Positions 26,388 to 39,122 are shown, counted from the first letter of the stretch. The stretch is DNA of 58,385 nt from Alphaproteobacteria bacterium (GCA_017534945.1 JAFXVB010000023.1:1-58385); one strand, 5' to 3'. Notes: a model not told the origin generated them from the letters alone. Numbers and translations: made by a program.

Positions 26388-26717
26388 ATGAAAAAATTAG
26401 CCACAGTGTTGGGTGTTGTTGGTTCGTTGTCTTTGGTTGCATGTGATTCACATGCGGGTGCAAAAAACGGTGATACGGTAATAATTGATTTTGCTGGATT
26501 TGATGGGGGTGTTCAATTTGATGGCGGCACCGCACAAAATTATCCACTTACATTGGGCAGTGGTCAATTCGTTCCTGGATTTGAAGAACAATTAATTGGT
26601 GCAAATGTTGGTGAAACACGCGATGTGAATATAAGATTCCCAGATAATTATGTGCCAAGCCTTGCCGGGCACCAGGTTGTATTCAAAGTCACCGTAAAAG
26701 AAATCAAATCAAAATAA
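26388..26717 (+). CDS. FKBP-type PPIase lipoprotein (trigger-factor-like domain)
   Basis: LVAC lipobox plus GDTVIIDF...LGSGQFVPGFEEQLIG...FPDNY. Confidence 0.85.
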   Translation: MKKLATVLGVVGSLSLVACDSHAGAKNGDTVIIDFAGFDGGVQFDGGTAQNYPLTLGSGQFVPGFEEQLIGANVGETRDVNIRFPDNYVPSLAGHQVVFKVTVKEIKSK

Positions 26718-26745
26718 AAATCCCCCAAATGGGGGATTTTTTTAT
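26717..26745. terminator. bidirectional terminator closing the phage-like operon
   Basis: AAATCCCCC-aaat-GGGGGATTT with A and T tracts. Confidence 0.8.
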
Positions 26746-26999
26746 TTTATTACTGCGGATTTAATAAGTGTCACATCTTCTTTTATTCCGTCAATTTTTA
26801 ATTGCAATTGTCCAATCCCAGATTCCAAAATTGTTGTGCGATTTTCCAGTGCTGTGATACGCGATTCCATCCGTTCCAGTTCTGTCAAAGAAGAATCTTG
26901 TCGGGCAACCCAATACACAACACCAAAGGCAAATACTAATAAAAACCAACTGCTTCGTAATAATTCCAAGAAATTTATTATATTTTGTTTTCGCGGCAT
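26742..26999 (-). CDS. TM plus coiled-coil phage-type protein
   Basis: WFLLVFAFGVVYWVA followed by heptads. Confidence 0.6.
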   Translation of the reverse strand: MPRKQNIINFLELLRSSWFLLVFAFGVVYWVARQDSSLTELERMESRITALENRTTILESGIGQLQLKIDGIKEDVTLIKSAVIK

Positions 27000-27001
27000 T
27001 T

Positions 27002-27202
27002 TTATTCTCCACCTTTACCGCGCGCAATCATTGATTCAATTTGACGAACAAAGGCACGATTGGCCTCGGCCCAACGCAATTCATTGTCTGTGGCATTTTG
27101 TCCCAATATTCGTTCGATTGTGATTTTACGCATATGTTGTAATACGGCACGACCAGACGGAGTATTAAATGTGCGCGCATATTGTTTTTCTGTATCTTGC
27201 AT
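27002..27202 (-). CDS. small conserved phage protein downstream of the portal (Bbp19-like)
   Basis: YARTFNTPSGRAVLQHMRKIT...LRWAEANRAFVRQI. Confidence 0.7.
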   Translation of the reverse strand: MQDTEKQYARTFNTPSGRAVLQHMRKITIERILGQNATDNELRWAEANRAFVRQIESMIARGKGGE

Positions 27203-27217
27203 TATTATCCTCCTTTT

Positions 27218-28441
27218 TTACAACACAGTATCTGTTGATGCAATTGCAATTGGTGCCATGTATTTTAATTCCGCATCACTGTGCAGTGATATCGGTTCAA
27301 TCACACCACGTCGCGACAAAATTTGCAATCCGCGTTCACACAGTGGTCTTATAAATTCATGCAATAACCGACCATATGTTGCGCCCAAAACACGCATCAT
27401 ATCGGCATTACGAGCCAATACTTCGGTTGCGGTCATTTCGCGGTCGGACATAAACCCAAGTCTGTCTGCCAACAAAGTATGGCGAATTCTGTCGCGCAAA
27501 TCGTTTAATACCAATTGTGAAACATCAAAATTTGCGCCGCTGGAAAGTGGGGTTAATCCAGAACTACCCACTGCTTTTGGAATTATTGCGCCGGGGGTCA
27601 GGTTTATGTTTTGTAAATTGATAACACCGTCATCATCGGCTTGCCAAATACCGCTGACCGCTATGGTTGCATTTTTCAAAACCAATTCTACAACTTTGTT
27701 TGCGGTTTTTATATCTGGCAAAGCGCGTAATACTGGACTCCGTCCATACAGTTCGCCACTGCATACACTCCAACGGAAAATCAAATAAGGATTTGTTTCA
27801 AATGTGCCGGTTGCGACAATATTATCTTCTATTGCGCCGTCAATATCTAACCATGCAACAAATTCCAAACCAACTAAAGATTGAATCAATCGCAGCGGAG
27901 TATCTGGATTTGCTTCGATTTTTTTCATAACATCTTTTGTGGGGACCCAATTTGGATAACGCATCATCACATCTGTTGCACTCATACTTGTTGTGTGAAA
28001 AATAGCGTTTGGTAAAATCGCAATATCTGTCATTGGGATTGTTGTGAAAGAAAAAGCACTGGTTGCACCAATTGGATTTTCTGTCATAAACATACATGCG
28101 GTACCATAGATACACAAATCCATATATGCCTGATGCACTGTTGTATAAAAATTAGAATCGTTCAAATTTGCGCGCAATGCATTGGTTGCGATTTCTGGAT
28201 TTGGCGAAGCATCGCTTTCTTTGACTAAATTTATCCACAACGATTCTGGGGGTGTCAATAATGTATAAATAGATGCTGCTAAATTATCAACCGCATCTGC
28301 CGCGGTACTATCAAATAATGTTGCAACTTCTGTATTGGTTGTTGGAACGGTATAACGACGCGCGTCATCCCATCGTTGCAACCAAGGTTCACGCAAAGTA
28401 ATTGCTTTGTTATACATTTTTTGTAAATTTTTTATATTCAT
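27218..28441 (-). CDS. portal (head-to-tail connector) protein, T7/BPP-1-like
   Basis: LFDSTAADAVDNLAASI, FRWSVCSGELYGRSPV..ALPDIK, MTATEVLAR, LGATYGRL. Confidence 0.9.
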   Translation of the reverse strand: MNIKNLQKMYNKAITLREPWLQRWDDARRYTVPTTNTEVATLFDSTAADAVDNLAASIYTLLTPPESLWINLVKESDASPNPEIATNALRANLNDSNFYTTVHQAYMDLCIYGTACMFMTENPIGATSAFSFTTIPMTDIAILPNAIFHTTSMSATDVMMRYPNWVPTKDVMKKIEANPDTPLRLIQSLVGLEFVAWLDIDGAIEDNIVATGTFETNPYLIFRWSVCSGELYGRSPVLRALPDIKTANKVVELVLKNATIAVSGIWQADDDGVINLQNINLTPGAIIPKAVGSSGLTPLSSGANFDVSQLVLNDLRDRIRHTLLADRLGFMSDREMTATEVLARNADMMRVLGATYGRLLHEFIRPLCERGLQILSRRGVIEPISLHSDAELKYMAPIAIASTDTVL

Positions 28442-28456: not shown

Positions 28457-29305
28457 CTATATTTTGAAATTTGTGTTTGCAGTATACATTCGTGTGGTAT
28501 GGTCATGTGGTCGGCATGGTATCGGCGTTGCATTTATTGCACCCGAAAACGCATCCAATCCGTCATCATGACCAATGCCGCCAATCGGTGACCACCCAAG
28601 CATTTCTGCCATAAAAGGCGTTTGTTGAATGCGGGTATGTGCAAATATGCGACCCGCACCCAAAAGTGGTTCCAAAGTATTTAAAATTCGTAATTCTTTT
28701 TTCGTATTATTTGTAATTTTTTGAACATATATACCACCACCACGATTGGCGATTTTATCCGCTAATATTTCGGGCAGTGCATTTCCCAATCCATTTGTTT
28801 CAACGGCCAACCTATGCAACTTATATTTATTTAGAAAATCCAAAACAATATCGCATTGATATGTTAATGGTTGTGGGCAATTATCCGGGACAACCATGTA
28901 CATAATATCATGTAAAAATATGTTATGAGATTTATCATCGCGAAATATCAAAACACATACACTGGAATCTGTATTTTTATGTCCCAATGCAGGATCCCAA
29001 TATACGGCGGCCCCAGTTATCGCCCAATCACCAATTTTTGCATTTGTTGGATTAAATTCGTGTGAATATAATTGAATTTTCCCTGGGTCTAAACGAATAT
29101 TATCCATCGGTGTAAATTTCAGCATCATTTGTGCCATGAAATGATGTTCACCGACGTTTTTTCTTAATTCATTTATTTTGTCAACTGGGAACACTTCTGG
29201 CCAAGTTGGCACGCCATCTGGGGTTTGGATTGGTAAAGAAAATTTTTTATATCCAATTAAAAAAGGCGTTGAAAAATGAAATTTTTTATTTACTATATTT
29301 GACAT
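28457..29305 (-). CDS. terminase large subunit, C-terminal nuclease half
   Basis: WPEVF..., YWDPALG, AVETNGLGNALP, HDDGLDAFSGAI; GGGAG SD inside the dnaB antisense strand. Confidence 0.85.
   Translation of the reverse strand: MSNIVNKKFHFSTPFLIGYKKFSLPIQTPDGVPTWPEVFPVDKINELRKNVGEHHFMAQMMLKFTPMDNIRLDPGKIQLYSHEFNPTNAKIGDWAITGAAVYWDPALGHKNTDSSVCVLIFRDDKSHNIFLHDIMYMVVPDNCPQPLTYQCDIVLDFLNKYKLHRLAVETNGLGNALPEILADKIANRGGGIYVQKITNNTKKELRILNTLEPLLGAGRIFAHTRIQQTPFMAEMLGWSPIGGIGHDDGLDAFSGAINATPIPCRPHDHTTRMYTANTNFKI
29269..29296 (+). promoter_or_regulatory. putative dnaB promoter (leaderless transcript)
   Basis: TTGAAA-16-TACTAT ending 7 bp before ATG 29304; no SD. Confidence 0.5.
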
Positions 29306-30872
29306 GGACTTTACTCCCAAAACTTTACCTACGAATCTGGAAGCCGAACAAGCGGTGTTGGCGGCTGTGTTGATGAATAATCGTGCTTTGGAAAAAGTCG
29401 GTGATTTTTTAAAACCCGAACACTTTTCACATCCTGCACACCAAGAAATTTATAAATTGGCATTGCGTCGTTTTGCGGCGGGCGTTCCTTTTGATATCAT
29501 TACGGCCAAAGATTATTTGACGCAACAGGGGACATTGGAAACCGTCGGTGGCATTAATTATTTGACTGAATTGTCTTCTGCTGGGGCGACGGTGGTAAAT
29601 GTTGAACAATATGGTCGAATTGTTTACGAAAACGCAATGCGCCGTCAATTGATTGCGCTGGGGCAATCAATTATGGATGATGCGTATGTTGAAAACCTAG
29701 ATAATCCTGTGGCGCGCCAATTGGAATGTGCGGAACAAAAATTGTTTGATATGGCGTCTGTTGGGGTTGCCGAACATGAACCTGCAACAATTGGTGTGGC
29801 ATTGCAAAGCGCATTGGAAGAAGCGCAAATTGCATACAAGGCCGATGGAAAATTATCGGGTTTAACCACTGGACTTACCAATTTGGATAAATCAATCAGT
29901 GGTTTGCATCACTCGGATTTAATTATTATTGCGGGTCGTCCTGCGATGGGTAAAACCACATTGGCGATGAATATCGCATTTAATGCGGCAAACGCAATTA
30001 TGACGGGACGCGCGAATAATCAATACAAAGGTGTGGTTGCGTTTTTCTCACTTGAAATGTCCGCATCACAATTGGCAACACGTGTTTTATCGTCCCAGAC
30101 AAAAATTCCGGCAACATCTATGCGTGAAGGTTCGTTGACTGATGAAGAATTTTTAAAAATGTCCCAATATTCCAAGGCAATCGCGCAAACGCCATTGGTT
30201 ATTGATGATACGGCGGGTATGTCTGTGCCTATGATTCGCACGCGTGCGCGGCGATTGGCGCGTAAATACGGTGGAATTGCATTGATTGTCATTGATTACC
30301 TGCAATTGATGATGTCGCCCGGTGGCAAACGAAGTGAAAATCGTGTCCAAGAATTGTCCGAAATTACTCGCGGTTTAAAAATGTTGGCCAAAGAGTTAGA
30401 TGTTCCTGTGATTGCATTGTCTCAATTATCACGCAGTGTTGAAATGCGTGATGATAAACGACCACAATTGGCGGATTTGCGTGAATCTGGATCAATTGAA
30501 CAAGATGCCGATATTGTTATGTTCACATATCGTGAAGAATACTATTTGGACAATCGTGATCCATCACAACGCATTTCTAATACAACATCACAAAACAGTG
30601 TTGAAACATGGCAAAGACGGCTTGAACGCGCCCGGGGCAAGGCGGATGTGATTATCGGTAAAAACCGTCATGGCCGACCCGAAACGGTTCGTTTGGCGTT
30701 TCTGGGTGATTATTGCCTGTTTGATAATTTGGATGAAATGGCGGAACGCAATACCGCACCATTACCCGGTGATTTCGCAGATACAGGCATCCCTGAACAA
30801 CATAATATTGTGCCAAATGACGATAATATTGGTGTTGATGTGTCCGCGATTCCTGATGATATACCATTATAA
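29304..30872 (+). CDS. dnaB: replicative DNA helicase, host type
   Basis: LPTNLEAEQAVL, AGRPAMGKT, FSLEMS, IDYLQL, LSQLSR, DLRESGSIEQDAD. Confidence 0.97.
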   Translation: MDFTPKTLPTNLEAEQAVLAAVLMNNRALEKVGDFLKPEHFSHPAHQEIYKLALRRFAAGVPFDIITAKDYLTQQGTLETVGGINYLTELSSAGATVVNVEQYGRIVYENAMRRQLIALGQSIMDDAYVENLDNPVARQLECAEQKLFDMASVGVAEHEPATIGVALQSALEEAQIAYKADGKLSGLTTGLTNLDKSISGLHHSDLIIIAGRPAMGKTTLAMNIAFNAANAIMTGRANNQYKGVVAFFSLEMSASQLATRVLSSQTKIPATSMREGSLTDEEFLKMSQYSKAIAQTPLVIDDTAGMSVPMIRTRARRLARKYGGIALIVIDYLQLMMSPGGKRSENRVQELSEITRGLKMLAKELDVPVIALSQLSRSVEMRDDKRPQLADLRESGSIEQDADIVMFTYREEYYLDNRDPSQRISNTTSQNSVETWQRRLERARGKADVIIGKNRHGRPETVRLAFLGDYCLFDNLDEMAERNTAPLPGDFADTGIPEQHNIVPNDDNIGVDVSAIPDDIPL

Positions 30873-30949
30873 TTTTCTGTACAGATTTTACTTGCCAAGT
30901 ATTTAAAAATTGACTAAACTTTTGTCAAGTATTCCAAGGAGTCAATAAT

Positions 30950-31957
30950 ATGGCACAAGAAGAAATCATTTTTCCAAATAATATACGAACAATCCGTTTG
31001 AACAACGGCATGAAAATGACGGAACTGGCGCGTAAGACCGGTTTAAGTTTGTCTGCTGTATCAAAAATAGAAAAGGGTGTTCGTCGTTTAAACCAAAAAC
31101 AGTTATTAAACATCTGCAATATTTTGGGTTGCAAACTGTCTGACATTTTCATCAAAGAATCTGATGCGGTTGCTGATAAATGGCAAACTGAAATTAAACG
31201 CCGTTTGAACGATAACGAACATGGCGGGTTAAAGGTTTTTGGTTCTGGATTGCGTAAAATCCGTCAATTACAGGGCAAAACCATTGCCCAGGCGGCCAAA
31301 GATGCCGGTATGACTTTATCTGTGTACCATAAAATTGAGATTGGCCAACGCGAAATTTATAAAAACGAAGTTGAACCTTTGGCAAAATCTTTTGCTTTAT
31401 CCGCCGAAGGCATGTTCGATAAAATCGCAAATCTTTATAAATCTGGCGAATTAACCAAACAGATAAACAAGGTCAAAGAACGTGTTAAATCTGTTTTGAT
31501 TCCTGATAATCCTGTATCTGGTATTGATATGCATGATGGATTATATGGTGCGAAATTATATGACAGTGCGCGCCGAAAATTGGTACCGGTGTTTGGGTCG
31601 CCTGCGGGTCGTGCAATTTCCTTTAAAAGAAATGATAAGGTTATGATTGTCGCGCCGGCATCACTTGAAGGTCGCAAATCAATTTACGCTGTTATTCCAA
31701 ATTCAAAACGCACAGGTGGTTTTATTCCTGAAAAATCGTATGTGTTTGTTGATGCAATGCAACCGGCCAATGCGGGTGATTTGGCATTATGTTTTGATGC
31801 TGATTTTGCAAAATTGGGTGCCGAAGATGTCATCAATGCTCAACTTGCGATTATACATGCCGATGCCAAGGGCAAATTATACGGCGCGATTGTTGACCCT
31901 CAGGAAAAAATTTACGCCAAAACCATGCATCGTGTTGTTTTGATTTTGACCGAATAA
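30950..31957 (+). CDS. XRE-family regulator with two HTH domains and a C-terminal S24-like region
   Basis: IRTIRLNNGMKMTELARKTGLSLSAVSKIEKG; LRKIRQLQGKTIAQAAKDAGMTLSVYHKIEIG. Confidence 0.85.
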   Translation: MAQEEIIFPNNIRTIRLNNGMKMTELARKTGLSLSAVSKIEKGVRRLNQKQLLNICNILGCKLSDIFIKESDAVADKWQTEIKRRLNDNEHGGLKVFGSGLRKIRQLQGKTIAQAAKDAGMTLSVYHKIEIGQREIYKNEVEPLAKSFALSAEGMFDKIANLYKSGELTKQINKVKERVKSVLIPDNPVSGIDMHDGLYGAKLYDSARRKLVPVFGSPAGRAISFKRNDKVMIVAPASLEGRKSIYAVIPNSKRTGGFIPEKSYVFVDAMQPANAGDLALCFDADFAKLGAEDVINAQLAIIHADAKGKLYGAIVDPQEKIYAKTMHRVVLILTE

Positions 31958-31980
31958 TAATTTGATGGAGGGGGAAAAAC

Positions 31981-32640
31981 ATGAAACCAAAAGCAAATCT
32001 TGTCGCACAAAGATTGGTTAACCTGTATCGTCAAGAACACGTAATTCTGGGCGGATGGGCTGCGTTAAACCCTATCTTTGTTAATGAAGCCACCGAAGAT
32101 GTCTTGATTGAAATGGCGGATTTGCCGACGGGTAAAATGTTGGTTCAGCACATTAAAAATTTGCGCAGTGGAAAAACCCCTATGGATTCGATTGACCGAA
32201 ATCTTTTGCCATATGGCGGTTTGATGGCGGAATCTGCGGTTACCATGCCATTGGATGAAAAACAATGGATTGATTTAGAAAACGCAATCAATAATTTTAC
32301 ACCAACTCAACAAGGTTTAATTGATTTACAAAAATTGGATATCATCAAAAGATTTGGTGACGAATGGTTGGTTGCAATTAAAACAATTTTATCTGGTCGT
32401 CCTGAATTATTACCAAAATGGAAAATTGTCATGCAAACATATCGCGCATATCATTTGTGGGATATGGCGACCCAAATTATAAATCAACCATTAACAGAAC
32501 GTGCGCGCGCACAAATTCAGGCTGATATGCCTGAATATGAAACTTTTTTGCCTATGTTCGCAGATGAAGGTAAAAAATTATTAGAACGTCTGCGTACATT
32601 TATGAAGGAAACCAAACACCCAGATACCCAACAAGATTAA
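31981..32640 (+). CDS. hypothetical protein
   Basis: GGAGGGG SD; 219 aa. Confidence 0.75.
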   Translation: MKPKANLVAQRLVNLYRQEHVILGGWAALNPIFVNEATEDVLIEMADLPTGKMLVQHIKNLRSGKTPMDSIDRNLLPYGGLMAESAVTMPLDEKQWIDLENAINNFTPTQQGLIDLQKLDIIKRFGDEWLVAIKTILSGRPELLPKWKIVMQTYRAYHLWDMATQIINQPLTERARAQIQADMPEYETFLPMFADEGKKLLERLRTFMKETKHPDTQQD

Positions 32641-33254
32641 TCGTCATCATCGCTTGTTCTGTATATTGTATCCATTGTATGCGGGGTTCCAATATAAATC
32701 ATTGTGCCGTTTGGTGATAAAATAAAATCCAATTCTCGTAATTTTTCGCGTAATGCTTCGCGCTTTTGTGGGGTGTTGGAAGTATTTGGAACTTCCACAT
32801 CATCGCATATTATTAAATCTGCGCGCATACCGGTAATATTGCCATGTATTCCTTGGCAAATAACAGACGGTTCACGAATCCCAATTGGACGATTTATTGT
32901 TATTTTATCATTTGCCCACTCTTTTTTTGGATTTGGAACCATATCGAAACACAGCGGATGGTTTTCTAATATATTTTTAATATGTTGAACCATGCGTGCC
33001 GCCAATACAGTATGTGCCGACAAAACCAATATTCTGGTTTTTGGACGTAAATATAAAATATACGCCGCAAATATTCCAACAATGGTAGATTTACCAGAAT
33101 GTCGAAACGCCATCAACAAACCTCTATGATTTGGTGATTGCCATACATCATACAAAAAATTTAACATATCTTTGTGGTGTTTTGGTGTTTTATATCCCAA
33201 AATATCATTCCAAGAATCAGCAAATTGGTGGACTTGTGTAAGCATTTTATCCAA
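32637..33254 (-). CDS. terminase large subunit, N-terminal ATPase half
   Basis: LMAFRHSGKST (Walker A), ADLIICDDVE (Walker B), IYIGTPH. Confidence 0.88.
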   Translation of the reverse strand: MDKMLTQVHQFADSWNDILGYKTPKHHKDMLNFLYDVWQSPNHRGLLMAFRHSGKSTIVGIFAAYILYLRPKTRILVLSAHTVLAARMVQHIKNILENHPLCFDMVPNPKKEWANDKITINRPIGIREPSVICQGIHGNITGMRADLIICDDVEVPNTSNTPQKREALREKLRELDFILSPNGTMIYIGTPHTMDTIYRTSDDDD

Positions 33255-33594
33255 CTATATCATCAACTCGTGAAAGTAATTTTTTCAATAAATTTGGTTT
33301 GTTTGTTTTTATATTTTTTAATTTTTCTAAATTATCCTTTTTTTTATCTTCAAAAGATTGTGCTGTTTCATCCCGCATACGACGCAAAACCGCGCCTGTC
33401 ATAGTGTTGGACGCGGATACGCCACTGGCGCCGTATTTGGCGCGTTGCGAAGCCAATGCTTTTTTTATTAAATTAGTTTTATTTTGTTCGTCATTTGCTA
33501 TTTTTTGCAAAATTTCCTGACGTTGGTTATTTGCAGATTTTTTTGTTTTTTGATAATTCAAAATTTCGTTAACATCGGATACCAATTGTCCCAT
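33247..33594 (-). CDS. phage virion protein (internal-virion-like)
   Basis: ALASQRAKYGASGVS motif; position after tail tubular B. Confidence 0.55.
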   Translation of the reverse strand: MGQLVSDVNEILNYQKTKKSANNQRQEILQKIANDEQNKTNLIKKALASQRAKYGASGVSASNTMTGAVLRRMRDETAQSFEDKKKDNLEKLKNIKTNKPNLLKKLLSRVDDIVG

Positions 33595-33612
33595 TTTTAT
33601 CTCCTTTTTGTA

Positions 33613-35325
33613 TTAAATTTCGTATTGTCCATAAATTGTCACAGAAAAAACTGTAATCGGCATAGGTTCATCGCCATGTAATGTCCACAGTGGTGTTGAT
33701 TCATCTATTTGTGAACCCAACATATTCATAGATATATCACCAGAAAATCCTGGGGATGACGGCAAATAAACTTCGTTTGGTAATTCAATACGCATATTGT
33801 TTATAAAAGCGCTTTTGGTATTCATCAAACGTAAACTTATTTTGCGCAGACGTAAATGTACCGGACGATGTCCAGAAAAATTCATAGGCACCCCCGATGC
33901 ACTAAATTCAATTTTATAAGTTGTTGAATCTGTCAAAGCAGTATGCGAAAATTTTGCCAGTTTATATGTGCTATTGTTTTCTATAATAACAAAAGTTTCG
34001 CCGCCACTGATTGCCACAGATGTAAATTTTCCGTATGTTGTATATCGTGCCCATGCAGAAATCCCAAGATTAGTGTTTTGGTTTAATACGGCTATATCGC
34101 CATTTTTATTCACAATATACAACTGTTTTGATACTTTGTTATATGCAATATCTGTTGGTTCATTAATCAAGTGTTTGGCAAAAATACATAAGTCATCAGC
34201 GTTATATTTATCACCCAAAGTATCCAAAGATAATTTACGAATATCTTTCATAGTATTGGATACAAAAACAGTTTCGCCTTCGATTTTTTGTGGCGTCAAC
34301 GAATATCCTGTGACACTTCCAACTGTTGTATGCTGTTTGATGTTTATATTGGATGGGGTAAGTGGTTGATTGGCGATTGCCCATTCTCCATGTGATGTTA
34401 AGACCTGTAATTTATCGCTACTGATTAAATTACATATTTCTTGTCTTTCTTTGGATAATAATGTTGTTGTAATTGCTTCGTCATCTAAGCCTGTGCCGGC
34501 ATTAAAATTATGGTGTTCACCTGTTTGTGACATCCAAATACCACCGGGATTATAATATGTGCCACCAAATACCAATCTATCTTGGTGAAAAGTCACAGAA
34601 CGTGGCCATCCATGACGCGAATCAAACGCACTTTCTAACCAATCAGTAATAGCGGTTCCTGGTAAAGTATATTCTTCCACACTTTTAGCATAGACCACAG
34701 TTGGATTGACATATTCAATAATTTCCCATGTTTGATTTCCAAATTGCACAATTGTTCCAACATTTGATGATGTCCAATAATTGCCAGATGCAGTAAATAC
34801 CGCAGACATTGACCCATATGGGCCACTGGTAAGTGTGATTGAAATGCCGCGCATTTCATCATATTTCATTAAAGGAAATTGTGGGTATATTCCTGTGGAG
34901 TCATAAAAACTGAATATCCCCAAAGAAAAACTGTTGCCACTTTTTGTTAAAATATATGGGCAAATATCCGGATGAACAAAAATCATAGAATCACCACGAC
35001 CTGTGAATTGTATTTTTGATAAAGATTCCGTTGACCATGGCGATACTAATGTTTGCACTAATGTATCATTGGAATAAATTGATACTGTAAAATTAGTAAA
35101 TACCAATATATAATTTTCTTGTTGTGAAATATCAAACGAAAATATACGTGCCGCACCAGATAATACAGCAACATCAACCAATCCCGGACGTAATGTCAAT
35201 CCGCCACCGGCCAATACATCCATGTTTTCCAAATGTGCCAACCCAGATATATTTTTGTTCAAGTAAAATTCAGGTGCAATTTCACCATTTGCAAAAGAAT
35301 TTTGTGTATGTATAAATTCTGTCAT
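33613..35325 (-). CDS. tail tubular protein B / stabilisation protein
   Basis: QNSFANGEIAP, GWPRSVTFHQDRLVFGG, WMSQTG. Confidence 0.85.
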   Translation of the reverse strand: MTEFIHTQNSFANGEIAPEFYLNKNISGLAHLENMDVLAGGGLTLRPGLVDVAVLSGAARIFSFDISQQENYILVFTNFTVSIYSNDTLVQTLVSPWSTESLSKIQFTGRGDSMIFVHPDICPYILTKSGNSFSLGIFSFYDSTGIYPQFPLMKYDEMRGISITLTSGPYGSMSAVFTASGNYWTSSNVGTIVQFGNQTWEIIEYVNPTVVYAKSVEEYTLPGTAITDWLESAFDSRHGWPRSVTFHQDRLVFGGTYYNPGGIWMSQTGEHHNFNAGTGLDDEAITTTLLSKERQEICNLISSDKLQVLTSHGEWAIANQPLTPSNINIKQHTTVGSVTGYSLTPQKIEGETVFVSNTMKDIRKLSLDTLGDKYNADDLCIFAKHLINEPTDIAYNKVSKQLYIVNKNGDIAVLNQNTNLGISAWARYTTYGKFTSVAISGGETFVIIENNSTYKLAKFSHTALTDSTTYKIEFSASGVPMNFSGHRPVHLRLRKISLRLMNTKSAFINNMRIELPNEVYLPSSPGFSGDISMNMLGSQIDESTPLWTLHGDEPMPITVFSVTIYGQYEI

Positions 35326-35340
35326 AACATACCTCCTTTT

Positions 35341-35859
35341 TTAAAATCTGGCATTAATCAAAGAAAATTGCTCTATCCCAGAATTTATATCTGTGGTGGA
35401 ATCTATAAACTTTGCATTTTGAAATTCTGCTTCATATAAATTGATAAGTGTTCTTAACATTTGTTGACTGCCGGTAAGTGGTATACAAAATTCTATCGCT
35501 AATTTAGTAGCAGCCAACGCAACAAAATAACTTGGAAATTTTTCTGTGCTTACACGCATAATGGCCATCATTTGAACATTATCTGTATTTGCACAAATTT
35601 GATTTCCATATATTCGACCATTACAATGCAAAATCCTTAGTACATTTTCAGGAATAATAAATTCATTGTCTTGATTTTTTTCAATTGATAAATTTTGTGT
35701 GGCGAAACGCCATGGATGATTTGACAACAAAGCATCAATTACTATGTCATATAATGTTCTGGCTAATTGTGCAGAAGCACTGTCTGTATTAAGTGATACC
35801 AACGGTTTTTCGCCCAACTTTAACAATGCCATAGAACATAAATCTAATTTCGTAAGCAT
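35341..35859 (-). CDS. tail tubular protein A / adaptor
   Basis: LDLCSMALLKLGEKPLVSL, HPWRFA, FPSYFV.LAA.KLA. Confidence 0.85.
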   Translation of the reverse strand: MLTKLDLCSMALLKLGEKPLVSLNTDSASAQLARTLYDIVIDALLSNHPWRFATQNLSIEKNQDNEFIIPENVLRILHCNGRIYGNQICANTDNVQMMAIMRVSTEKFPSYFVALAATKLAIEFCIPLTGSQQMLRTLINLYEAEFQNAKFIDSTTDINSGIEQFSLINARF

Positions 35860-35875
35860 ATTTATCCTTTTTAGT

Positions 35876-35906
35876 AAAAAGATAGTGGGACAAATATCCC
35901 ACTATC
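35876..35906 (-). terminator. terminator after the capsid genes
   Basis: GATAGTGGGA-caaata-TCCCACTATC plus T5 on the minus strand. Confidence 0.7.
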
Positions 35907-35932
35907 ATATTAAGTTTGTTTTATAGTTTATA

Positions 35933-36163
35933 TTAAGACAATGCATCTACTGTCACAGTATCGCTTGCTACTGCTATTGTCATGATGGATGTGCCGTCTG
36001 ACGCATTGATTATGATAATATCGCCAGTATTCATTAATGTCGCAACATTGTTGAAATACCCACTCGCAGAAATTGCGGTCAATGTTTCATCCGCGGCATA
36101 GTGCCACAAAGTAAAACCATTTGCATACGCAATTACAGATAATTTTTTATTTTGAAATGCCAT
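35933..36163 (-). CDS. small phage protein after the capsid gene (decoration-like)
   Basis: LSVIAYANGFTLWHY...GYFN...GDIIII. Confidence 0.7.
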   Translation of the reverse strand: MAFQNKKLSVIAYANGFTLWHYAADETLTAISASGYFNNVATLMNTGDIIIINASDGTSIMTIAVASDTVTVDALS

Positions 36164-36202
36164 CTGTTTTCCTTTTGGTTATTTGTTTTATATAGAGTGT
36201 TG

Positions 36203-37024
36203 TTATGCGTTATCTTTACATTTAAGACGAACGATTCCATCTTGATCAATCAAGACTGCGCCTTGGGACATGCTGTTGCTAATAAAGTGCGCCGCACGTT
36301 CACCATGCCAAGTAATATCTGTTTTGACTTCTTGACCGCATGCATGACCAATACTGGACGCATGATATATAAAGCAACTGCGTTCTGTTGTATTGCTTAA
36401 CGGCAAATCATTGTGCAAAACCCATGTGATGCCCAACCATTTTCTGGCTTCATAACCTTTGACCATTGGATTGTCGCCAACATAATCTGCTGACACAAAT
36501 TCAGTAATGCCCAACAATTCGTTCCATTGATGAACACCAACAACACCGAATCTGCGGCCATCATCTGGAACATCTTTTTCGTTTAATTTTTCGATTGCTT
36601 GCAAAATCATCGATTTGCTTAAACCGGCTGAAAAGTTGCCAACATATGCGGTGGCACCGTTCATTGCATCAATAATTAATTCATCTGTTTTGCGACCCAA
36701 TGCATACGCACCAGCCGAAGCAACAACACGACGTTCATCAATATTGGTTTTCAATTCATCCAAACTATCAACCCAATCACCAGCATAGTAATCCTGTAAA
36801 ACACATTCCACAGGTTGATGATTCAAATTCATAACTGGCACAATACCATGTCTGGATTTTGTGCTGGCGGTGCCGCGTCCAATTGTTTGGAAAGTTGTAG
36901 ATTGTCCCACAACACCAGATTTGCTGCGAATTGTAGAACGTAATTTTGTGCCCATTTGCTGATAAGCCAAATGAACATCTGCTTCAAATTGTTTCACAAA
37001 AACTTGATCGATAGAAACAGACAT
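36203..37024 (-). CDS. major capsid protein
   Basis: IDQVFVKQFEADVHLAYQQMGTKLR, YAGDWVDSLDELK, AYALGRKTD; AAGGA SD. Confidence 0.88.
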   Translation of the reverse strand: MSVSIDQVFVKQFEADVHLAYQQMGTKLRSTIRSKSGVVGQSTTFQTIGRGTASTKSRHGIVPVMNLNHQPVECVLQDYYAGDWVDSLDELKTNIDERRVVASAGAYALGRKTDELIIDAMNGATAYVGNFSAGLSKSMILQAIEKLNEKDVPDDGRRFGVVGVHQWNELLGITEFVSADYVGDNPMVKGYEARKWLGITWVLHNDLPLSNTTERSCFIYHASSIGHACGQEVKTDITWHGERAAHFISNSMSQGAVLIDQDGIVRLKCKDNA

Positions 37025-37207
37025 ATTTATTCCTTTTGTTAAATTAAAAAAAACATGGTGCAAAAAATTGCACCGACCAAAGATTGATTTTTGTTTTTTT
37101 GATTATGCAAACATAACATTTGCGTCATATAACAAAATGCGGGGTCTGTAAAAGATTGTCCTGCAACAGTTTTAGTTAGACTAATTATTCATCTAACTAA
37201 AATTATT

Positions 37208-37233
37208 AAAAAACCCGCAATTTCTTGCGGGTT
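37208..37233 (-). terminator. terminator after the histone-like gene
   Basis: AACCCGCAA/TTGCGGGTT plus T tract. Confidence 0.75.
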
Positions 37234-37254
37234 AAATTGACTTAAAAGAAAATA

Positions 37255-37575
37255 TTATTTTCTTTTTGCCGCTTTTTTGCATGCGCATTTTTTCGCAGGT
37301 GCTTTTTTAGCAACAGCTTTCTTAGCAACTGGTTTTTTTGCAGCAACTTTTTTAACCGCTACTTTCTTAGCAGCTGGTTTTTTAGCAACTACTTTTTTTG
37401 CAACTGGTTTTTTCGCAGCAACTTTTTTTGCAGGTGCTTTTTTTGCAACTGGTTTTTTAGCAGCTGGTTTCTTTGCAGCTACTTTTTTAGCAGCTGGTTT
37501 TTTTGCTGCAGGTTTTTTAGCAGCAGGTTTAGCGGCAGGTTTAGCAGCTTTTTTTGCTGAAAATAAGAATGCCAT
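37255..37575 (-). CDS. histone H1-like (HC2/AlgP-type) Lys/Ala-rich protein
   Basis: KKPAA/KKVAA pentapeptide repeats; AGGAG SD; TGGACT-17-TAGAAT promoter at 37629-37657. Confidence 0.85.
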   Translation of the reverse strand: MAFLFSAKKAAKPAAKPAAKKPAAKKPAAKKVAAKKPAAKKPVAKKAPAKKVAAKKPVAKKVVAKKPAAKKVAVKKVAAKKPVAKKAVAKKAPAKKCACKKAAKRK

Positions 37576-37686
37576 TCTTCTCTCCTTTTTATGTTTTGGA
37601 TAGAACAAATTTTTTTGTTCTTACTTATATTCTATATGAAAAGAAAATAAGAGTCCAGAAAAAATTATTTTTTTATTTAATTTTTT

Positions 37687-38355
37687 TTAATTTTTTTCAT
37701 TTGAATATAATTTTTTAAAACCATTTTCAATTTTACGAACATATTCAGGATCCGCATCACGCCAATATTTTGGATCGCGCATCATGCGTCTTAAATCTGC
37801 GTCTGTTAAATTTTCTTGCACATCAATATTTGTTTCGATGTGTGGTTCCATTGATTGCATCATCGCGTACACACCTTGGATTCCGCTGGCGCTGGAACAT
37901 AATGATTCAAATGCATCGTGTGGTAAAAATTTTTCACCAAATGTATTTATCGCAGATAAAGCATCGTTCATTTTATCGCGTGACCCAAAAAATTTTTCCA
38001 ATTTTGAAATTTCATCTGTTTCATTTTTAACAGAAAATAATTCTGTGATGACGGGTGATAAAAATTCTTCTGCTACGGAATAAATTTGTTCAACTTGATG
38101 TGATGTTAATCCCATATCATGAAATTTTTGTTTAATCGATTCGTCATCGAACAAATCATTTTTTGGATAATCATCCGCATTTTCTGGCACACCAATTGCA
38201 CGATTAAATTTTTCGCGCGTGACTTTATCGTCATCATTATGTGGCACAGATATCATACCACCAATTTTCTTTTCCAATTCATTATAAGATTTTAATAACG
38301 CATCAACATTGGTTGTGCCATCATCGTTTTGAAATTTTTCTGGTACTTTTTGCAT
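37687..38355 (-). CDS. capsid assembly (scaffold) protein
   Basis: VPEKFQNDDG..NVDALLKSYNELEKKIG; MMRDPKYWRD. Confidence 0.8.
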   Translation of the reverse strand: MQKVPEKFQNDDGTTNVDALLKSYNELEKKIGGMISVPHNDDDKVTREKFNRAIGVPENADDYPKNDLFDDESIKQKFHDMGLTSHQVEQIYSVAEEFLSPVITELFSVKNETDEISKLEKFFGSRDKMNDALSAINTFGEKFLPHDAFESLCSSASGIQGVYAMMQSMEPHIETNIDVQENLTDADLRRMMRDPKYWRDADPEYVRKIENGFKKLYSNEKN

Positions 38356-38557
38356 TTGTTCTCCTTTTTGTATCCTTTGATTTACGCAAGAAATAAATTC
38401 CGCCAAGTGTGAATACAGATTGCATGGTCATAAACAAATCTGCATCGCCAACTAAATAAGCCGCGATGGCGGATAAAATTCCAACGCCTGATAATATATA
38501 TGTTCTGTGTCCGGCCAAGAATCCGCCATGAATAATTTTTTGTATTTTCATTTCCAT
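38321..38557 (-). CDS. putative holin
   Basis: GFLAGHRTYILSGVGILSAIAAYLVG; two TM segments and a basic tail. Confidence 0.55.
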   Translation of the reverse strand: MEMKIQKIIHGGFLAGHRTYILSGVGILSAIAAYLVGDADLFMTMQSVFTLGGIYFLRKSKDTKRRTNAKSTRKISKR

Positions 38558-38564
38558 TTTTCCA

Positions 38565-38975
38565 TTACAAGTAAAATAACAATCCATCTAATTCCAAAAT
38601 ATATCCGCGTGCAATTGACCAAGATGGATTTAATTCTGTCCTATGAAATTTAGTCGCACCAAAACAACAATCTTCCAGATTGTGTTTTAACATTTTATCA
38701 ACAACGCGCGCACACATTTGAAAGGTTCGTGCGTTTGTGTTGACACCTAATAAATCATGACGTTTTGATTTTTTATTCAAAGATTCAAACAATCCAGATT
38801 CCATAACGAAATCCAATTCGGTTTGATTATTGACACGTGCACCATTTACAATCATCGATGCCAAAGCTTCGACCACGCGTAAAGATTGTGCGCATGTTTC
38901 CGCGTAAACAACGCGTGATATTTTATATACATCTGGATTAAAATCATTTTGATGTTTGATTAATGGCAATTGCAT
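38565..38975 (-). CDS. SleB/CwlJ-like cell wall hydrolase (endolysin-like)
   Basis: ISRVVYAET, GATKFH, PSWS, GLLFY. Confidence 0.7.
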   Translation of the reverse strand: MQLPLIKHQNDFNPDVYKISRVVYAETCAQSLRVVEALASMIVNGARVNNQTELDFVMESGLFESLNKKSKRHDLLGVNTNARTFQMCARVVDKMLKHNLEDCCFGATKFHRTELNPSWSIARGYILELDGLLFYL

Positions 38976-39001
38976 TGCGAATACCCTTTGGTTTAAAACA
39001 T

Positions 39002-39028
39002 AAAAAAAGCGCACATAAAAATGTGCGC
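39002..39028 (-). terminator. terminator in the leader of the phage-like operon
   Basis: GCGCACAT-tttt-ATGTGCGC followed by T7. Confidence 0.75.
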
Positions 39029-39093: not shown

Positions 39094-39122
39094 ATTATAT
39101 CACAAATCGCAACATAAGTCAA
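39094..39122 (-). promoter_or_regulatory. consensus sigma70 promoter
   Basis: TTGACT-17 bp-TATAAT on the minus strand. Confidence 0.75.

Follow-up and report, generated by a model that had tools for sequence, protein, structure and literature searches.

Can a large terminase (TerL) persist as two separate genes, and how did the replicative helicase gene of the host come to lie between them? A locus in an Alphaproteobacteria bacterium (GCA_017534945.1 JAFXVB010000023.1:1-58385; we call this whole stretch of 58,385 nucleotides the window) raises both questions. On its minus strand the two parts of a T7-type TerL, terL-N and terL-C, flank a block of plus-strand genes that includes dnaB. We think it probable that they encode a two-polypeptide terminase within a domesticated particle cluster carried throughout the order Rs-D84, and that dnaB is a later, family-specific neighbour. 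The original prediction, made from the window's sequence, had drawn both halves and the intervening block; the open reading frames (ORFs) are confirmed, and the arrangement recurs in 80 of 80 loci of the genus Enterousia:

32637-33254, minus strand: terL-N, 205 aa, ATPase core of a T7-type large terminase.
28457-29305, minus strand: terL-C, 282 aa from the ATG at 29305 (ORF open to a TTG at 29320, 287 aa), last ATPase strand, lid helices, hinge and RNase-H-like nuclease.
29304-30872, plus strand: dnaB, host-type replicative helicase, PF00772 and PF03796 both matched.
30950-31957, plus strand: regulator with two helix-turn-helix (HTH) motifs, XRE-type, 335 aa.
31981-32640, plus strand: hyp219, 219 aa, conserved hypothetical protein without family match.

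The two minus-strand products are collinear on the NCBIfam profile termin_lrg_T7 (NF033889, 500 positions), with terL-N at positions 4-191 (234 bits) and terL-C at 231-500, and again on phrog_38 (760 positions; 285-459 and 481-705); they match adjacent parts of full-length TerL. In addition, terL-N aligns to residues 34-211 of a solved T7-type TerL (8dgc_E/4bij_A), and terL-C matches PF22530 at 31.5 bits against a cut-off of 27. Across six families, terL-N is invariant in Walker A (G54-K55-S56), Walker B (D151-D152), the catalytic E154 and motif III (G189-T190-P191-H192), and terL-C in the acidic residues D109, E174 and D252/D253/D256 (287-aa numbering). An AF2 model of isolated terL-C (predicted local distance difference test, pLDDT, 82.6) has a disordered N-terminus, a strand/lid segment at 66-79 and a confident RNase-H-like fold, and its top Foldseek match is 8dgc_E (4e-13), followed by the TerL nuclease domains of P22, SPP1, Sf6 and human cytomegalovirus (HCMV). 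These matches identify terL-N as the ATPase half and terL-C as the nuclease half of one T7-type TerL, encoded as two genes. For the second gene the likeliest start is the ATG at 29305 (282 aa), which has a conserved GGGAG Shine-Dalgarno (SD) sequence and lies within a CATG start-to-start overlap with dnaB; gene callers give terL-C 279-283 aa in relatives.

Set beside T7-type TerL proteins (T7 gp19; PhiV-1 TerL, PDB 8DGC; 4BIJ; NF033889; PF03237 + PF22530), the pair keeps the same ATPase core motifs, the same RNase-H-like nuclease with its acidic triad, and the same neighbours: portal, scaffold, capsid and tail tubular A and B, all of T7 type. It differs in being two genes, cut after motif III, and in being chromosomal and vertically inherited. 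The presence of both domains on one polypeptide, a trait of T7-type TerL, is found neither here nor in 305 Rs-D84 genomes. The Rs-D84 TerL is only 33-37% identical to phage TerLs, and a segment of about 48 residues (gp19 residues 211-259) is absent both here and from fused relatives of about 495 aa.

Those fused relatives define the cut. Outside Rs-D84 they form more than 2,400 clusters (for example on the Magnetospira sp. QH-2 chromosome and on IMG/VR contigs L102-L113) and are 45-52% identical to terL-N and 30-36% to terL-C. They read ...GTPHTFYTIY-QVEDNPNKPDNK-PYLKGF.LEIPIL... or ...TIY-DTLG-FLRGY..., with 4-12 residues from ...TIY to PFL.G, that is, between the end of terL-N and the conserved part of terL-C; where they have this linker in a single ORF, Rs-D84 has a stop and a restart. 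In the window terL-N ends ...TPHTMDTIYRTSDDDD*, its stop nine residues past ...TIY. Judged from the fused relatives, no TerL sequence is missing between the halves.

When a fused relative is modelled with AlphaFold (pLDDT 87.6), the motif-III strand (178-187) leads into a coil that bears the linker (188-215), a strand with an invariant L.IP motif (216-220), two helices (237-256) and, from about residue 274, the nuclease fold. Because this model and that of terL-C place the last strand and lid on terL-C, the modelled break is inside the ATPase domain, in the loop after motif III between the core and the last strand plus lid, and not at the ATPase/nuclease hinge. The original prediction had put the split at the ATPase/nuclease boundary; its two ORFs stand, but the cut follows motif III and leaves terL-C with one strand and two helices of the ATPase domain. 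The difference in model confidence suggests that this strand/lid segment probably docks onto terL-N. A 2.9-Mb alphaproteobacterium from outside Rs-D84 encodes a TerL of this family in two frames that lie next to each other, 44 nt apart (G484:C20:27563-29030; query residues 6-190 and 210-494); this is either a frameshift or a split that arose independently close to the same site.

The split is a property of the whole order. The named relatives of the window are metagenome-assembled genomes (MAGs) of Candidatus Enterousia and of unnamed Alphaproteobacteria, recovered from the guts of ruminants, birds, rodents and humans. According to the literature, Enterousia belongs to the uncultured Rs-D84, with genomes below 1 Mb, a very limited metabolism and a probable dependence on partners; a paper on the group (PMC12306168) makes no mention of phage genes, gene transfer agents (GTAs) or terminases. 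The assembly that holds the window (G000) has 909 kb and is 89.6% complete. With a fused 477-aa TerL relative as query, a census of 328 Rs-D84 genomes found matches in 305 genomes, in 216 of the 224 of high quality (about 96%) and in 28 of 30 genera. Nearly all matching genomes gave two separate matches, and because no E-value was better than 1e-62, none of the genomes holds a contiguous full-length TerL. Of 61 relatives, 53 have each half as an open frame of its own, and the halves co-occur in about 290 genomes. Among 298 evenly drawn alphaproteobacterial genomes outside the order, this TerL family occurs in 41 (about 14%), nearly always as a single ORF; it is sporadic there and clade-wide in Rs-D84.

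What stands between the halves depends on the family. In families f5, f2 and f4 they are adjacent ORFs on the same strand, with spacers of about 170-330 nt, and terL-N ends at the same ...GTPHT..TIY, so that relatives do split at the same point. In f3 the order is TerL-N, other genes, ftsZ, portal and TerL-C; ftsZ falls between the halves because it sits directly upstream of the portal gene. In f6 the portal gene directly follows TerL-N, and tail tubular B lies further downstream. The order of cluster genes differs from family to family, with the host genes dnaB, ftsZ, pilin-like and amidase inside. Only in f1, the family of Enterousia, does the dnaB block separate the halves. The original prediction had this block splitting the terminase, and here the comparison reverses cause and effect: since TerL is already two genes where its halves are adjacent or are separated by ftsZ and portal, the family distribution dates the split before the dnaB block. 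A TerL tree puts all split forms and 32 fused forms in one well-supported clade with an unresolved base. We drew no conclusion from this tree on the number of split events (the fused P0135 groups with f1 and f4) and used the organismal census instead; the organismal distribution suggests a single origin.

One alternative is that the terminase of a prophage was destroyed by an insertion, or by a misjoin during assembly, and that its pieces are decaying. Conservation within Enterousia speaks clearly against it. Gene order is identical in all 80 loci fetched, which come from independent assemblies and include the circular long-read MAG OZ007020.1: p149, scaffold, capsid, p76, tailA, tailB, p115, TerL-N, then hyp219, the HTH gene and dnaB on the opposite strand, then TerL-C, portal, p66 and p85. 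Apart from one decayed locus the 80 differ in contig ends only, the distance between the halves stays within 3270-3437 bp, and an arrangement shared in this way is far beyond chance. The terL-N frame is intact in 80 records and the terL-C frame in 70 of 72, and catalytic residues are invariant. Pairwise ratios of nonsynonymous to synonymous change (dN/dS, Nei-Gojobori), which are upper bounds because dS is near saturation, are 0.12 for TerL-N, 0.20 for TerL-C, 0.08 for portal, 0.17 for tail tubular B, 0.06 for dnaB, 0.085 for the HTH regulator and 0.225 for hyp219, with all cluster genes at 0.08-0.28.

Decay does occur in a few lineages. In L031 (JAZLBQ010000007.1, 9599-14577), G028:C1 and G023:C1, deletions have taken the tail genes and portal, and the capsid gene and terL-C survive in truncated form. 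These loci retain dnaB, hyp219, the HTH gene and, at the start of terL-C, some 85-95 codons, which are the upstream region of dnaB. Moreover, G030, G033 and about 20 other genomes have no cluster. Against these cases stand the synteny of the 80 assemblies, the intact frames at dN/dS 0.12-0.20, and a presence in 216 of 224 high-quality genomes of the order versus about 14% elsewhere in the class. Misassembly and the decay of one half in close relatives, two of the dangers to which the original prediction had pointed, are thus not what the loci display. As far as sequence data reach, the reading as a broken prophage or artefact is already refuted, and we give it a negligible probability.

The dnaB gene between the halves is of host type, as the original prediction had it, and is the only copy. 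It scores 600 bits against the alphaproteobacterial replicative-helicase equivalog NF006606 (cut-off 540) and 499 bits against TIGR00665 (385), and at 409 bits it stays below the phage_DnaB cut-off of 499. It is the single DnaB_C match in the 909-kb assembly, and 57 of the 59 relatives with a match likewise have one per genome. In one 82%-complete Enterousia MAG dnaB is in two overlapping frames (G010:C28:5858-7395; residues 1-322 and 321-522), probably through an assembly error. Within f1, every Enterousia species that was sampled and has the cluster also has dnaB between the halves, and coordinates show the same for at least four other genera. Throughout Enterousia it is flush with terL-C, the two ATGs sharing a conserved 2-nt overlap (CATG), and at the other end of the block the stops of hyp219 and terL-N overlap by 4 nt (TTAA) in most loci. 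The HTH regulator is single-copy across the order and adjoins the cluster only in f1. In families other than f1, dnaB and the regulator are distant both from the cluster and from each other, so the dnaB-HTH-hyp219 'insert' is not a cassette. The C-terminal 130 or so residues of the regulator (30950-31957, plus strand) open with VPVFGSPAG and by eye resemble the start of a LexA/CI-type S24 domain; they have no Pfam match.

An essential gene in this position invites the idea of a lock, in which dnaB was selected to sit inside the terminase and thereby prevents the loss or excision of the cluster. The original prediction had the cluster locked into the chromosome by an essential gene. It is true that dnaB is the sole replicative helicase gene, that all sampled f1 genomes have it flush between the halves, and that ftsZ, also essential, is inside the cluster in f3, f5 and f2. 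However, families without dnaB in the cluster retain it equally well, and in L031, G028 and G023:C1 piecemeal deletion has removed phage genes around an intact dnaB. A domesticated cluster without an integrase would also have nothing to excise; domain and profile scans of the cluster proteins in 26.7-39.1 kb revealed neither integrase nor polymerase, the rest of the genome not being screened. We regard such a lock as a quite improbable cause of retention.

In f3, f5 and f2, ftsZ is present in single copy directly upstream of the T7-type portal gene and on the same strand (G053:C5:202270-205458; G059:C13:12829-17162; G040:C7:18245-21511; G042:C29:39098-42558), a second essential cell-cycle gene inside the phage-derived cluster. 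A search with Tubulin/FtsZ (PF00091) found no match in six Enterousia genomes (89-96% complete; among G000, G020, G003, G013, G036, G002 and G039) or in f4, and matched f3 and 13 of 14 control genomes. Cell division in Enterousia may proceed without FtsZ.

The geometry in f1 also allows a regulatory role to be added to the split. As terL-N and hyp219 overlap stop to stop and terL-C and dnaB start to start, late transcription would have to run antisense through the dnaB operon, which would make particle and dnaB expression mutually exclusive and create a commitment switch or a lock. Both overlaps are conserved. In 39 of 62 loci the p85 stop, which ends the last cluster gene, has a terminator-like hairpin no more than 50 nt away, whereas hairpins after terL-N are scattered and at background level (20 of 79 loci; controls 7 of 74 and 28 of 74), and no conserved terL-C promoter is detectable. 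Given these two observations, transcripts of the head operon may continue in antisense across hyp219, the HTH gene and dnaB as far as terL-C and portal; if so, particle production would be coupled to dnaB expression. On the other side, Rho-dependent termination or weak internal promoters could also operate, and terL-C of f5 has its own strong promoter, so read-through would not be ancestral. The best antisense candidate for a terL-C promoter (44 of 73 loci) is the reverse complement of the dnaB Walker-A codons, with 31 of 73 in the sense-strand control, and was rejected. Also withdrawn was a collapse of synonymous sites at terL-C codons 8-21, read as an embedded signal, which is an artefact of the variable N-terminus; synonymous-site data anchored on nucleotides reveal only AT-richness upstream of dnaB. 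Overall we find such regulatory nesting rather unlikely.

The f5 spacers carry near-consensus promoters right after the terL-N stop (TTGACA-N17-TATAAT or TTGACA-N17-TAAAGT). In L009:4274-4487 and L010:4694-4929, both on the minus strand, the sigma-70 promoter is followed by a conserved CU-rich tract of CCUCC repeats, which from its sequence could pair with an SD sequence.

The herpesvirus terminase gene UL15 consists of two exons. In Jug and crAss-like phages the terL coding sequence is likewise in pieces, and split terL genes that group I intron splicing restores to one polypeptide are common in some gut phages (PMC12880540). The f5 spacers measure 215-237 nt, about the size of a small group I intron. 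The Rs-D84 halves might by analogy be rejoined after transcription or translation, through a cis- or trans-splicing intron, a split intein, ribosomal bypass or a frameshift. Yet no intron or ribozyme family was matched in Rfam (E<=0.1) by the adjacent-type spacers or the window, a search that did not extend to group I subtypes absent from Rfam, and Pfam found no intein domain in the window's proteins. From motif III to the end of terL-N there are 2-10 residues, and from the start of terL-C to the conserved PFL.G there are 15-25, too few to accommodate the fragments of a split intein. Unlike the intron-split genes, the halves have unrelated genes between them, on either strand (3.3 kb of opposite-strand genes in f1, ftsZ and portal in f3), and terL-C has its own SD sequence, ATG and promoters. 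Rejoining therefore seems to us very improbable indeed.

If the halves are made separately, do they work together? They may instead have been sub-functionalised, each kept for a job of its own (for example an ATPase on the portal and a free-standing nuclease), with no joint packaging enzyme and with particles filled in some other way or not at all. The closest experiment is the artificial split of T4 gp17 at its linker, which also made separate polypeptides of the ATPase and nuclease parts; both activities were kept and DNA translocation was lost (PMC3012670). The activity of a split enzyme can therefore not be assumed. Moreover, the halves are in different transcription units in f1 and f5, and G041 and G305 have terL-N and no detectable terL-C. 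Nevertheless, about 290 genomes have both halves, decay of the cluster removes the two along with portal and tail genes, and in f1 the portal gene directly follows terL-C. The nuclease half also carries an ATPase strand and the lid, which would make little sense for a free-standing nuclease. The T4 cut was at the inter-domain hinge, while on the fused-relative model the natural cut is one element earlier and the lid-hinge-nuclease link stays covalent. Separate functions thus strike us as distinctly unlikely.

Several observations weigh against a two-polypeptide terminase in a domesticated cluster, beginning with the loss of translocation in split gp17. Even by profile search, G041 (f6, 99% complete) and G305 (f1, 93% complete) yield no C-half beside their terL-N. 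A search for a conserved terL-C promoter in Enterousia, made in the antisense direction inside dnaB, identified none. The window's cluster has no recognisable tail-fibre or large internal-core genes, the TerL tree leaves a single or multiple origin of the split undecided, and all genomes compared are MAGs. The locus in G041 (L114, G041:C64:28000-42000) and that in G305 have portal, capsid and tail genes along with TerL-N, and G041 again has an order of its own, with tail tubular B after portal and lysis genes.

We nonetheless favour the two-polypeptide terminase. It is established that TerL is encoded by two genes, each with its own SD sequence and ATG, and that these are conserved across the order, are under purifying selection and keep their catalytic residues intact. 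The searches also turned up no sign of splicing or recoding. The two-subunit enzyme of the original prediction is to this extent upheld, in about 300 species, with physical assembly and activity inferred. The pattern of prevalence (about 96% of high-quality Rs-D84 genomes versus a sporadic presence elsewhere), selection and family-specific interleaving with host genes fits domestication. In the scenario we propose, Rs-D84 would have inherited a domesticated morphogenesis and packaging cluster of a T7-like podovirus vertically, and the cut in terL, within a short surface loop, would date from the ancestor of the order or earlier. With two independent genes in place, rearrangement in genomes of about 0.9 Mb could put others between them: dnaB, the HTH gene and hyp219 in f1, ftsZ and portal in f3, and nothing in f2, f4 and f5. 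The halves would re-associate non-covalently, probably by docking of the first strand and lid of terL-C onto the ATPase core of terL-N, and could then act as a functional motor for packaging, seated on the portal of particles, GTA-like or similar, that are still made.

The remainder of the 12-kb cluster of phage-derived genes is arranged as follows:

27218-28441, minus strand: portal (T7-type head-to-tail connector), PF12236, 6.8e-76, directly downstream of terL-C.
27002-27202, minus strand: p66 (Bbp19-like), small cluster gene that precedes p85.
26742-26999, minus strand: p85, one predicted membrane helix, closing gene of the cluster.
26716-26741, either strand: strong bidirectional terminator-like hairpin that closes the cluster.
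33247-39014, minus strand: structural genes upstream of terL-N, namely p149, scaffold (PF05396), HC2-like Lys/Ala protein, major capsid (PF19821), p76, tail tubular A, tail tubular B and p115.
38565-39014, minus strand: p149, homologue of a PF07486 cell-wall hydrolase found in relatives.
39094-39122, minus strand: sigma-70 promoter-like site TTGACT-17-TATAAT ahead of the structural genes, 11/12 consensus with TG, by pattern match only.

On the IMG/VR contigs with fused TerL the order is portal, p66, scaffold, capsid, p76, tailA, tailB, internal proteins, TerL, cell-wall hydrolase and a GTA-type holin, and their capsid is 56-60% identical to that of the window. This is probably the ancestral order, and the position of p66 after the portal gene is common to both. 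In L113:12524-13617 the fused TerL is followed by the cell-wall hydrolase (PF07486, homologous to p149 of the window) and GTA_holin_3TM (PF11351); in Enterousia p149 has moved from behind TerL to the head of the cluster. Between the scaffold and capsid genes, at 37255-37608 on the minus strand, is an HC2/histone-H1-like Lys/Ala-rich protein (PF07382, 57 bits). Of the 80 related loci only a few had a tblastn match to it, though a sequence of such low complexity may be missed.

Domesticated particle systems have precedents in the GTAs (RcGTA, CcGTA, BaGTA, FpGTA). There, too, phage-derived head, tail and packaging genes are kept by a host clade under purifying selection and are dispersed or interleaved with host genes. 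GTA clusters have no replication module, and none was seen in 26.7-39.1 kb of the window. RcGTA and BaGTA are HK97/lambda-like (PMC2697382), BaGTA being lambda-like and not T7-like, and FpGTA is a podovirus-like element of Faecalibacterium (PMC12946183). None of these GTAs is of T7 type or reported with a two-gene TerL. In the literature we found no description of a naturally two-gene TerL or of a T7-type domesticated cluster, and papers on phages 0305phi8-36 and Slash describe no split terminases. It is tempting to speculate further, and we do so tentatively, that Rs-D84 makes a T7-derived particle system (a podovirus-type GTA or a DNA-delivery device) driven by the first natural two-chain TerL motor. 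Its genes would be woven into those of the cell cycle, dnaB in the Enterousia family and ftsZ by the portal gene in most others, and particle production would be wired to replication and division, for example through antisense transcription across the sole dnaB.

Terminases have been treated as single-chain motors, and the hinge cut of T4 gp17 is the one direct experiment on that point. A TerL kept as two genes over the lifetime of an order provides a natural experiment on the covalent links that such a motor requires, and its cut point, between ATPase core and lid, differs from the experimental one. Annotation pipelines label both halves 'hypothetical', and the region would score as a defective prophage. 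Yet the retention of 12 kb of phage genes in genomes of about 0.9 Mb implies an important function, and a domesticated particle system of T7 type, so far undescribed, would be present in abundant uncultured gut bacteria. Moreover, one or other of dnaB and ftsZ recurs within the cluster, and the link that this suggests between the cell cycle of these organisms and their production of particles can be tested.

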